64,000 nucleotides of DNA from Acidobacteriota bacterium (GCA_965205505.1 CBDBHB010000009.1:2624001-2688000); one strand, 5' to 3'; shown: positions 18,271-62,180, numbered from the stretch's first letter. Notes: generated from the letters alone by a model not told the origin. Numbers and translations: made by a program.

Positions 18271-18343
18271 GGGCCGTTAGCTCAGTTGGGAGAGCGCCGG
18301 CCTCGCATGCCGGAGGTCGGGGGTTCGAGCCCCCCACGGTCCA
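18271..18343 (+). tRNA. tRNA-Ala(CGC), CCA not encoded
   Basis: Acceptor stem GGGCCGT/ACGGTCC with G3:U70, D arm, anticodon stem CCGGC/GCCGG with loop CT-CGC-AT, T loop GGTTCGAGCC. Confidence 0.95.
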
Positions 18344-18347
18344 CTCG

Positions 18348-18376: not shown

Positions 18377-18485
18377 AGTAGAGTTCTTCAGCAACCTGCT
18401 AGTGGCCTGGCCGTGGGGCCCGGCCAACAGGCCCTCACTCCGTTCGCGCCAGCAAGAGGCCCGCCGTAGGAGACCACGCCGCTAG
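18375..18485. repeat. Stacked CTAG-bounded element remnants
   Basis: CTAG at 18375, 18399 and 18482; ...TTCTTCAGCAACCTG-CTAG looks like an IS/MITE end; 18403-18481 has degenerate inverted ends TGGCCTGGCC/GACCACGCCG. Confidence 0.4.
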
Positions 18486-18760
18486 TGTTCCTGATCATAA
18501 GTACGGTGACGTTTGTGGCGCGCGCGACCGGGGCGAATTGTAGGAGCGGCGACGAGGGCGATGCTGGGTGTATCGTCGAGGCGCCGCGACGCCCAAGGTG
18601 GCCGGTCCCGCGGCCACCCGGAGGGCAGGAGCGATATGCGGGCGAACTCGGCGTCAGGGCTCGTCGAGGATGGCTAAGGCATCGCCTTCCTCACCCTTCC
18701 TTGATCTCGCCCGCATCTCGCTCCTGCAAACGTCACCCACCGTACTTATGATCAGGAGCA
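18486..18760. mobile_element. CTAG-flanked MITE-like element, end type A (271 bp + 4-bp CCAC duplication)
   Basis: TIRs TG(T/C)TCCTGATCATAAGTACGGTGACGTTTG; CTAG at 18482-85 and 18761-64 (acs stop); near-identical to 44700-44970 inverted. Confidence 0.9.
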
Positions 18761-20677
<1,917 letters not shown>

Positions 20678-41766: not shown

Positions 41767-41901
41767 CGCCCGTGCGGGAGGCAAGTTGACCCTCGTGGCG
41801 GCCCTCCTCGGCGATGCATACGGCATCGCCGTCGTCGGGCCTCCTTGGATCCGACTCGGTCGCGCGCGCCACAATATGCGACGAAACTCTGTTACAGGAC
41901 A
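41767..41901. mobile_element. Half element, end type B, between ptsH and ptsI
   Basis: Reverse complement of the left half of 48088-48358: core CCTCGGCGATGCATACGGCATCGCCGTCGTC and end CCACAATATGCGACGAAACTCTGTTACAGGACA. Confidence 0.85.
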
Positions 41902-43674: not shown

Positions 43675-43854
43675 TGCTCCTGATCATAAGTACGGTGACG
43701 TTTGTGGCGGTCACCCGGAGGGCAGGAGCGATATGCGGGCGAACTCGGCGTCAGGGCTCGTCGAGGATGGCTAAGGCATCGCCTTCCTCACCCTTCCTTG
43801 ATCTCGCCCGCATCTCGCTCCTGCAAACGTCACCCTACTTTATGATCAGGAGCA
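43675..43854. mobile_element. Type-A element with the left hairpin module deleted (180 bp)
   Basis: Type-A TIRs; CTAG at 43671-74 (ptsI stop) and 43855-58; GTGGCG joined directly to GTCACCCGGAGG. Confidence 0.9.
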
Positions 43855-44699: not shown

Positions 44700-44970
44700 T
44701 GCTCCTGATCATAAGTACGGTGACGTTTGCAGGAGCGAGATGCGGGCGAGATCAAGGAAGAGTGAGGAAGGCGATGCCGTAGCCATCCTCGAGGAGCCCT
44801 GACGCCGAGATCGCCCGCATATCGCTCCTGCCCTCCGGGTGGCCGCGGGACCGGCCACCTTGGGCGTCGCGGCGCCTCGACGATACACCCAGCATCGCCC
44901 TCGTCGCCGCTCCTACAATTCGCCCCGCTCGCGCGCGCCACAAACGTCACCGTACTTATGATCAGGAGCA
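44700..44970. mobile_element. Intact type-A element, 271 bp
   Basis: Perfect 30-bp TIRs TGCTCCTGATCATAAGTACGGTGACGTTTG; CTAG at 44696-99 (cupin stop) and 44971-74. Confidence 0.92.
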
Positions 44971-47484: not shown

Positions 47485-48087
47485 ATGAACGGATCGGGCA
47501 AGCAGAGTTTCTACGAGATCCAACTAAGCAACAGCAGCCTGATCGTGGCCTTTCTGGTGGCGGTTGGCTTGGGCGTTGCCGTGTTCATGCTCGGGGTCAT
47601 GGTGGGGCGCGATCAGGGACCACAGCCGTTGCTTGAAGGTGGCTTGGTCGAGGCGCTCGGTGACGAGACTGGCCCCGCGCCGGCGGTCGATCCGGCTGAT
47701 ACGGATTTCCTCGGACGCATGGAAGAGTCGGCGGAAGAGACGACCGCCAACCTCGGCACAGCGGCAGCGGAGCCGGTCGCTGCAACGCGGCCGGCCGAGG
47801 CGTCGCCGTCGGCCGCTACAAACGATCTGCCGGTGGCGGACCCCTCGATCGCCAGCGGCTATGTGGTGCAGGTCAAGGCCACGAGCGATCGCGACGAGGC
47901 TGACACGCTTCAGGCAAGCCTCGCATCAGCGGGGTTTCCGGCGTTCATCGTGTCCGGCGATGTCGCCGGGACGATGATGTTCCGCGTACGCGTCGGGCGC
48001 TACCGTGAGGAATCGGCTGCCGAGCGCGTCGCGGCTGCGCTCAGCGGCCGTCGCGACATCGTCGACACCTGGATCACCCAGGGCTAG
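47485..48087 (+). CDS. SPOR domain protein (FtsN/DedD-like)
   Basis: Single TM, low-complexity linker, YVVQV.A...FRVRVG SPOR domain. Confidence 0.85.
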   Translation: MNGSGKQSFYEIQLSNSSLIVAFLVAVGLGVAVFMLGVMVGRDQGPQPLLEGGLVEALGDETGPAPAVDPADTDFLGRMEESAEETTANLGTAAAEPVAATRPAEASPSAATNDLPVADPSIASGYVVQVKATSDRDEADTLQASLASAGFPAFIVSGDVAGTMMFRVRVGRYREESAAERVAAALSGRRDIVDTWITQG

Positions 48088-48358
48088 TGTCCTGTAACAG
48101 AGGTTCGTTGCATATTGTGGCGCGCGCGACTGAGTCGAAACCAAGGAGGCTCGACGACAGCGATGCTGAGCGTATCGCAGAGGAGGGCCGACGCCGGAGG
48201 CGGCCAGTCCCGCGGCCACCCGGAGGGCTGGGTCGATATGGGGACAATCTCAGCGTTGCGATTTGTCGACGATGGGCACTGCATCGCCATCCTCATCGCG
48301 CCTTGAGCTTGCCCCCATCTCGCCGTAACCAGACCCACCACACTTTCACCACGGCCTG
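48088..48358. mobile_element. Chimeric 271-bp element (left end type B, right end type C)
   Basis: CTAG at 48084-87 (SPOR stop) and 48359-62; left end TGTCCTGTAACAGAGGTTCGTTGCATATT, right end CAGACCCACCACACTTTCACCACGGCCTG; CCGGAGG at 48220-26. Confidence 0.88.
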
Positions 48359-48371
48359 CTAGAGGGAACAC

Positions 48372-61909: not shown

Positions 61910-62180
61910 CAGACCGTGGTGAAAGTGTGGTGGATCTGGCGACAGGGTCTTGCGAAGTGCAGGCAAGGAGAGAGGAGGAGGCGATGGTTACGCCATCGTT
62001 GACGAGGAACGACGCAGCGTACGCGCGCAACCCCCTGTCGCCCGAAGGGTTACGGCGATTTGGGGCCAACTGCGGCGTTGGCCTTCCTCGACGATGGCTA
62101 GGGCATCGCCTGTGTCAGGCCGCCTTGCATCTGGCCCCAACTCGCCGTAACCAGACCCACCACACTTCCACTACGGCCTG
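61910..62180. mobile_element. Intact type-C element, 271 bp
   Basis: TIRs CAG(A/G)CCGT(G/A)GTG(A/G)AAGTGTGGTGG(A/G)TCTGG; CTAG at 61906-09 and 62181-84 (DUF1844 stop); CCGAAGG at 62042-48. Confidence 0.9.

Follow-up and report, generated by a model that had tools for sequence, protein, structure and literature searches.

Stems whose structure rather than sequence is kept are known from integron attC sites and from the ends of IS200/IS605 elements, which act through one functional strand and show an orientation biased by replication. Small gene-less repeats offer a second set of comparisons, for which we follow PMC2229807. The pneumococcal repeat unit (RUP), thought to be mobilized by IS630-Spn1, is a non-coding element of 107 bp with 9-bp terminal inverted repeats (TIRs) like those of the IS630 family, inserted at TA, present in about 100 copies and forming a single stem-loop (PMC2229807). 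The ERIC, IRU and RU-1 elements of enterobacteria are imperfect palindromes with TA termini that are co-transcribed with neighboring genes, and the fold of ERIC RNA affects mRNA stability in an orientation-dependent way (PMC2229807). Correia (NEMIS) elements of Neisseria are TA-flanked MITEs that give a long stem-loop RNA, cleaved by RNase III, and contain an internal protein-binding motif, a duplex IHF site (PMC2229807). TA is likewise the insertion target of the Tc1/mariner/IS630 family, for whose member ISY100 PMC2170065 describes transposition by transposase and double-stranded ends alone, with no hairpin intermediate, and cuts that are exact at the 3′ ends and lie two bases inside the 5′ ends.

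The element described here resembles each of these small elements in part. Like RUP it is a small non-coding element with IS630-like ends, inserted at TA and present in many copies; however, it measures about 279 bp, has 34-nt TIRs and two inward-facing hairpin modules, and its structured core is found under several end types and in MAGs labeled as several phyla. With ERIC, IRU and RU-1 it shares the palindromic build and TA termini, but a blastn search (11-base words) of the type-A element against 20,395 E. coli records, ERIC bearers among them, gave no match at E values up to 0.01, and neither substitutions nor orientation show selection on individual copies. Whereas the conserved motif of Correia elements is a site in duplex DNA, the conserved part here is a group of purine loops with mismatches, which covary as parts of one fold. 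The likeness to attC sites and IS200/IS605 ends lies in structure-conserved stems, a single functional strand and a replication-related orientation bias. In contrast to those systems, the genome (96% complete) has no match to the Y1 (HUH, IS200/RAYT) transposase PF01797, the conserved part sits at the tip of the hairpin and not at its base, and the termini are TIRs of the classical kind found on DDE transposons. Against Rfam 15 only a tRNA in the window was matched at the gathering score, and at E values up to 10 only generic long-hairpin miRNA models appeared (best E 0.19); no similarity to the type-A element was found among PLSDB plasmids. Full-text searches of the literature on bacterial MITEs, IS630 and tandem G-A hairpins, judged mostly at the level of abstracts, gave no description of the module.

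The preliminary description of this locus covered positions 18515-18727 of the window, the whole 64,000-nt stretch of DNA that was analyzed. This interval is exactly the gap between two TIRs, and its place as the body of a MITE with CTAG-flanked TIRs had not been recognized. The whole element, a type-A copy, runs for 283 nt from CTAG to CTAG (18482-18764, the bounding CTAGs being 18482-18485 and 18761-18764). A left TIR of 34 nt (18482-18515, plus strand), with ends like those of a resident IS630-type IS, is followed by a left hairpin module (18513-18620, 78.4 bits with covariance model R1) whose purine-rich version, the one predicted to fold, is on the plus strand, by a right module (18623-18729, 104.8 bits with R1) whose purine-rich version is on the minus strand, and by a right TIR of 38 nt (18727-18764, minus strand) found by an inverted-repeat search, in which four extra bases at 18734 are missing from other copies. 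The inverted repeats pair 18505-18515 with 18727-18737 at 100% and 18461-18508 with 18738-18785 at 79%. All features quoted in the preliminary description, which gave each hairpin module its own closing stem, are present in the sequence; the closing stem of the right module joins 18625-18645 to 18707-18727 (21 nt, 95% complementary). No ORF of at least 100 aa lies inside 18482-18764. TIRs, small size, many near-identical copies and the lack of a transposase gene inside are all found, as is insertion at the TA of CTAG with TA duplication. What lies between the TIRs is almost certainly the body of a non-autonomous transposon (MITE), one of those that IS630/Tc1-mariner-type transposases insert into the TA of CTAG sites. 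If the type-A MITE is read as an IS630-type element, its target duplication is the TA within each bounding CTAG. As an element type, a gene-less MITE is ordinary.

A tRNA-Ala(CGC) gene lies upstream of the MITE (18271-18344, plus strand), and an acetyl-CoA-synthetase-like gene (AMP-binding, ACAS_N; 18761-20677, minus strand) converges on it. Since the TAG stop of the latter is within the right CTAG, the 3′ untranslated region of this gene begins with the MITE. The orthologous site in genome G004 has one CTAG abutting the same gene end and lacks the type-A element, which is absent from the orthologous site in G001 as well; both genomes are of the same genus as the window genome, and the comparison gives a presence/absence polymorphism with target duplication, although the upstream flank varies among genomes, so that the empty site is imperfectly clean. 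Remnants of further MITE ends are visible at 18381-18410, between the tRNA terminator and the type-A element, as read from sequence and alignment. The counterpart in G004 (L194, approximately 2150-2200) holds a 20-nt scar, two end-starts that face each other (CTAGTGGCC..GCCACTAG), which looks like the footprint of an excision or collapse, and CTAG ends seem to draw further insertions. The type-A end (18482-18502) itself reads TAG TGY TCC TGA TCA TAA in the frame of the abutting TAG stop, placing all three stop codons within 18 nt, a property absent from the other end types.

The window genome (5.98 Mb, 9 contigs, 64% G+C) is rich in such elements. The type-A element has 22 further full-length copies at 96-98% identity, besides shorter and diverged ones; the core of its TIR gives 69 matches genome-wide, and 23 TIR pairs are spaced 277-283 bp apart. 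The core TCGASGATR-N5-10-CATCGCC, to which the preliminary description had drawn attention as shared among modules, occurs 155 times, and a profile search returned 377 modules, of which 314 are close to full length; at 88% identity they fall into 22 clusters. Module-bearing elements number 218. The elements in which modules sit are of near-constant size (277-283 bp) and have at least four distinct terminal repeats, every one starting with CTAG. With up to six mismatches allowed, the end types match 69 (A), 134 (B), 254 (C) and 31 (E) times, and aligned copies of four element families have CTAG at both ends. Within the window itself we found a second type-A element (44727-44943) and a type-C element (61937-62153), both with two inward-facing modules, a lone module (41767-41874, minus strand, 50.9 bits), a lone type-A right module (43720-43826, minus strand, 104.8 bits) and a chimeric element (48085-48363) that joins a left and a right end of two different types and whose right module changes type midway. 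The C-type stems are as previously quoted. The stem variant GACTG/CAGTC is real and belongs to the chimeric element, at 48129-48133 and 48206-48210; position 48088, to which it had been assigned, is the start of that element and not of the stem. Assemblies break at the type-A element, judging from contigs of four sequencing runs (one of them guessed to be RNA).

Two-module elements are built to a strict polarity. The claim that the core is present once per strand, in inverted arrangement, extends to 120 of 121 two-module elements in the window genome, 31 of 31 in G007 and 21 of 21 in G011 (172 of 173 in all), which puts the purine-rich version into the 5′ half of either strand. Rare departures exist: two modules in tandem with the same orientation (both minus) at G012:C10:221569-221786, and one same-orientation pair in the window genome.

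Each module, about 105 nt long, is a hairpin with covarying stems. Covariance model R1 was built from alignment A1, comprising 17 module types of the window genome in the purine-rich orientation, and a broader alignment, A3, holds 62 modules from about 25 genomes. The preliminary description had staked the fold on covariation in a larger alignment and on loops being more conserved than stems, and the data bear out both. Pairing cells in A3 amount to 92.6% against 66.7% after shuffling, with compensatory change in 32 of the 35 pairs and a covariation of 0.640 against 0.183 in shuffled alignments (none of 500 reaching the observed value), falling to 0.07-0.12 when the partners are slid by 1-3 columns. 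A second set of 99 distinct modules from 80 listed loci gives compensatory change in 34 of 35 pairs and a covariation of 0.512 against 0.133; both alignments were fitted to the structure of the model, and in the second the core is held constant by the pattern used as seed. Information content is 1.2-1.6 bits per column in the internal loops and 1.5 in the apical stem, against 0.6-0.7 in the outer and inner stems and 0.44 in the apical loop. From the outside to the tip, the rod consists of a variable outer stem of about 20 bp, a CAAGG / ACGCC loop, a variable inner stem, a 5′-GA(C/G)GA / 5′-GA(G/C)GA loop, a 1-nt bulge and a sequence-conserved apical stem of 7 bp (GGCGATG / CATCGTC) with one fixed G.U(T).

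In the apex-proximal of the two internal loops, 5′-G-A-(C/G)-G-(A/C) stands opposite 5′-G-A-(G/C)-G-A, which in antiparallel register gives G.A in 56 of 62 modules, A.G in 56 of 62, a covarying Watson-Crick pair (CG in 42 and GC in 15 of 62; CG in 72 and GC in 25 of 99 in the second set), G.A in 58 of 62, then A.G or C-G, and finally the 1-nt bulge. The second loop, CAAGG / ACGCC, has G.A in 59 of 62 modules, and its adjoining position is either A.G (28) or C.A (32), a non-Watson-Crick swap that takes in 60 of the 62. Swaps between A.G and C.A are of a kind known from sheared pairs in structured RNAs, where the two are isosteric. We thus read the loops, from alignment columns, as G.A pairs arranged around a covarying Watson-Crick pair. 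A kink-turn is defined by a three-nucleotide bulge directly followed by tandem G.A/A.G pairs, and was rejected on inspection of A3 and of alignment A4: the G.A pairs here are flanked by Watson-Crick pairs, the bulge is of 1 nt and on the apical side, and beside the other G.A pair the 2x3 loop carries additional bases on each of the two strands. Readings of the hairpin as a self-cleaving ribozyme or an attC site were likewise dropped on its anatomy. As for coding, the frame that starts at the ATG of the apical stem is closed after two codons in certain types; in others it stays open, and the types have no peptide in common.

The preference for one strand is seen in the mismatches that the stems tolerate, a check that had been proposed together with the fold. 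In the purine-rich orientation, G.U exceeds A.C by 131 to 27 over the 62 modules, or 83 to 27 without the conserved G.U; in the second set the ratio stands at 104:34 once the fixed G.U is set aside and, for the outer helices alone, which the search pattern leaves unconstrained, at 76:30. RNA folding favors the purine-rich strand in 12 of 13 module types. For the right module at the locus, RNA energies are −65.1 kcal/mol against −61.0 for the other strand (z −8.0, and −7.5 as DNA), and for the left module −59.0 against −49.4 kcal/mol, although the left module alone folds no better than its shuffles (z −1.8 as RNA, −0.5 as DNA). Over lone modules and pairs at large, DNA parameters show no difference between the strands. 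From these comparisons of sequence, the purine-rich strand is the predicted folded strand. That selection acts on a folded single strand with non-canonical loops, as first proposed, agrees with the covariation, the G.U excess, the G.A loops and the A.G-to-C.A swap.

The module is widespread. Model R1 finds it in 25 of 41 genomes (that of the window and 40 relatives): in 10 of 10 from the family of the window genome, 11 of 15 from a sister family and 3 of 15 from other families of the phylum. A scan with the core pattern over one genome per species gave at least 108 stretches, all in MAGs. Among the core-pattern matches listed, most are from Acidobacteriota; the other labels are Myxococcota/Myxococcales, Bradymonadales, Planctomycetota (Brocadiaceae), Gemmatimonadota, Chlamydiota, Spirochaetaceae and Gaiellaceae, these being the labels of the MAGs, in which binning errors are possible. 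The module is thus retained in chimeras, beneath several TIR types that look unrelated, and in MAGs labeled as several phyla. Apart from the ordinary MITE type, what is unusual is this one structured purine-rich module with non-canonical pairs, kept under different ends.

A likely source of mobility is at hand for type A. The window genome has six DDE_3 (IS630-type) matches in two IS families, both CTAG-flanked. One of these families is 1185 bp long and encodes a transposase with DDE_3 and HTH domains, and the outer approximately 24 nt of its ends (fam2) resemble the ends of the type-A MITE; for end types B, C and E no such resemblance was seen and no parent element was found in the window genome. 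The hairpin module is lacking from the resident IS630-type elements of both families, which indicates that the transposase does not require it. DDE_3 is present in 10 of the 25 module-bearing and none of the 16 module-free genomes (Fisher p 0.003, with related genomes not being independent), 15 bearers being without a match. IS630-type transposase genes are much expanded in two genomes, with 43 DDE_3 matches in G007 and 63 in G039 against 0-6 in the 39 others, and the window genome has in addition one DDE_Tnp_1 (IS5-type) match. Two candidates for a module-bearing autonomous element were rejected: three TIR pairs spaced 1.4-4.8 kb apart enclose ordinary genes and no transposase, and an apparent module within an IS in G007 proved to be a separate one-module MITE adjoining an IS630 copy. 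At this last kind of site, L062 (G007:C1:491589-494694; reverse strand 1470-2860), the IS630-type element sits exactly in the terminal CTAG of a one-module MITE that itself lies on the TAG stop of the upstream gene, and the insertions are thus nested at regenerated CTAG sites.

One-module elements are also informative as regards replication. At the base of the missing hairpin their deletion junctions are of many kinds, from which it follows that most are independent deletions, and the surviving module is of the lower-scoring 'left' type in 32 cases against 5. In the window genome the purine-rich strand of lone modules lies on the C-rich strand (the leading-strand template) rather than on the G-rich strand in a ratio of 37:15 (p 0.003; contigs C9 28:10, C8 9:2, C7 0:3), and between C9 and C8 the absolute strand flips with the polarity of the GC skew. 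Four other genomes together give 33:16 (p 0.02), namely G007 with 15:7 on contig C2 (tallied by hand) and 2:1 on contig C1, G011 with 5:1 (tallied by hand), G012 with 6:4 and G005 with 5:3, polarity there being taken from sampled 20-kb skew windows, a procedure with the right sign in 86-88% of windows in the window genome. Pooled over the five genomes the ratio is 70:31 (p 1.3e-4), in a test that was exploratory, having been conceived in the course of the work as one of roughly eight. G039 was left out of the count, its matches being of about 50 bits with partner modules probably below the cut-off, as was one G011 module near a skew switch, which was ambiguous. One one-module element has identical flanks on two contigs (G000:C7:402166 and G000:C9:2014), representing either a duplication or one locus assembled twice near a contig end; it entered the count twice, once per side. 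Since only 54% of genes are co-oriented with replication, gene orientation does not account for the bias. Scored by the better of their modules, two-module elements show no significant bias (52:36), and by DNA nearest-neighbor energies, which handle G.A and G.T pairs crudely, the strand that serves as lagging-strand template does not fold less well (28:24 for lone modules, 50:43 for pairs).

The simplest reading is that the better hairpin is lost more readily when its purine-rich strand belongs to the lagging-strand template. Such a deletion bias is the classical behavior of asymmetric palindromes. It points to the purine-rich strand folding as single-stranded DNA in vivo; hairpin deletion alone can yield it, so that the bias by itself does not demonstrate a function.

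Where, then, does selection act? In young families of the window genome, private stem transitions that create G.U number 68 against 73 that create A.C, unlike the fixed differences (Fisher p 1.6e-5), with the reservation that private substitutions may include assembly errors, which would mask weak selection. Among 49 one-module elements a gene enters from one side only in 26, and the mRNA would carry the purine-rich form in 13 and the other form in 13. Because of this evenness on both counts, resident copies look neutral, and selection would seem to act on the propagating lineages and not on the inserted copies. The earlier suggestion of a protein-binding site kept in 3′ UTRs finds no support on the same two counts, and a role of the single strand in the element's own movement fits better, as far as can be inferred.

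Taken as a whole, an IS630-type MITE equipped with a single-strand folding mechanism is our best explanation, and we would put its chances of being right at about even. For the fold itself we tentatively propose, with somewhat less than even confidence, a cis-acting single-stranded structure, more probably of DNA than of RNA, that aids mobilization in trans. The purine-rich strand would fold, and the resulting structure would help elements to be mobilized by transposases made elsewhere; it would be retained because lineages losing the fold stop spreading, not because each copy renders a service to the host. The same hairpins would destabilize the element during replication and so give rise to one-module derivatives. 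Against a mechanism involving the fold stands ISY100, which according to PMC2170065 needs only transposase and duplex ends and no hairpin.

A more specific version, which as it stands we consider unlikely, is that the hairpin, folding as single-stranded DNA, enables an element without genes to make use in trans of IS630-type transposases. The purine-rich hairpin always adjoins the 5′ end of its strand, and the strand cut two bases inside the end, as reported for ISY100 (PMC2170065), might be taken as the non-transferred one. Folding on the lagging-strand template or after the first nick could then expose or hold the end for the second cut; alternatively, the G.A platform might recruit a factor. 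Such a device would explain why the core survives exchanges of TIRs across phyla and why polarity is fixed, as well as why selection is confined to lineages and orientation matters relative to replication. If true, it would place a structure-assisted step in a transposon family thought to use plain duplex ends.

It could also be that the module acts as RNA, which we regard as rather doubtful. The purine-rich hairpin would then be part of read-through transcripts, typically in the 3′ UTR of a gene with an abutting TAG stop, as a protein-binding or nuclease-blocking structure by which insertions are made harmless or useful, in the manner of ERIC and Correia elements, whose effects on mRNA stability and cleavage by RNase III offer precedents (PMC2229807). 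At 43 of the 176 ends of two-module elements, a called gene running toward the element has its TAG stop in the end itself, which is true of one or both ends in 38 of the 88 elements, the window copy included. Between convergent genes the elements are slightly more frequent, and between divergent genes less frequent, than CTAG sites would predict (68/108/28 observed, 57/106/41 expected; p 0.04). These counts, like that of incoming genes at one-module elements, are approximate, as they depend on a crude GC3-based gene caller (5048 genes, 86.6% coverage). A transcript from either side meets a purine-rich module first, and structured RNA typically shows an excess of G.U, a conserved G.U and swaps from A.G to C.A. 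However, resident copies show no purifying selection on the fold, lone modules are evenly oriented with respect to the incoming gene, the replication-strand bias finds no explanation in gene orientation, and no U-tract follows the hairpins, as read from the window sequence. As regards stops in general, TAG is used by 1890 of the 5048 crudely called genes of the window genome (37%), 774 of these stops being within CTAG; this is high for 64% G+C, and MITE ends may supply part of it.

A functionless fold, which we hold to be decidedly unlikely, would mean that the palindromes are kept by hairpin-templated repair or gene conversion while the core hitch-hikes with successful elements. In its favor, the chimeras testify to frequent recombination within modules, and resident copies are neutral with respect to the fold. 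DNA-level processes would, however, perfect stems on both strands and leave the 3:1 excess of G.U in one orientation unexplained, as they do the conserved mismatched loops, the A.G-to-C.A swap and the recurrence of the same core under different ends in MAGs labeled as several phyla; moreover, deletion-prone hairpins would vanish without selection.

Still less probable, to a degree that makes us give it little weight, is a site in double-stranded DNA, the apical CGATG-N7-CATCG being an operator-like palindrome for a host protein or the transposase that bends the short element or regulates neighboring genes. The apical stem is conserved in sequence where the outer and inner stems are not, and the IHF site of Correia elements is a precedent (PMC2229807), but GA(C/G)GA and GA(G/C)GA are direct repeats in a duplex and yet their middle bases covary, and an asymmetry of G.U and A.C has no meaning in duplex DNA. 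That the modules are free-standing small RNA genes, with an inward promoter at each end and a structured RNA of about 110 nt acting in trans, accords with the constant position of the purine-rich module next to the 5′ end of its strand, and is nonetheless highly improbable given that, judged by eye, no promoter-like hexamer pair is common to the end types, that no Rfam family matches and that hundreds of copies evolve neutrally.

The reading we favor, a single-stranded fold in the service of the element's own spread, bears on how MITEs are understood. They are usually viewed as two transposase-binding ends with filler between them, and here the filler is the conserved part. If the fold aids mobilization, it shows gene-less elements competing for a transposase made elsewhere and adds a single-strand step to the biology of IS630/Tc1-mariner transposons; should it act in RNA instead, one protein-binding platform is common to hundreds of 3′ UTRs in these bacteria of soil and sediment. 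In any case, the replication-strand bias is a natural read-out of hairpin formation in vivo, and the module is a ready marker with which to annotate a good part of the repeats at which short-read assemblies of these bacteria are interrupted.
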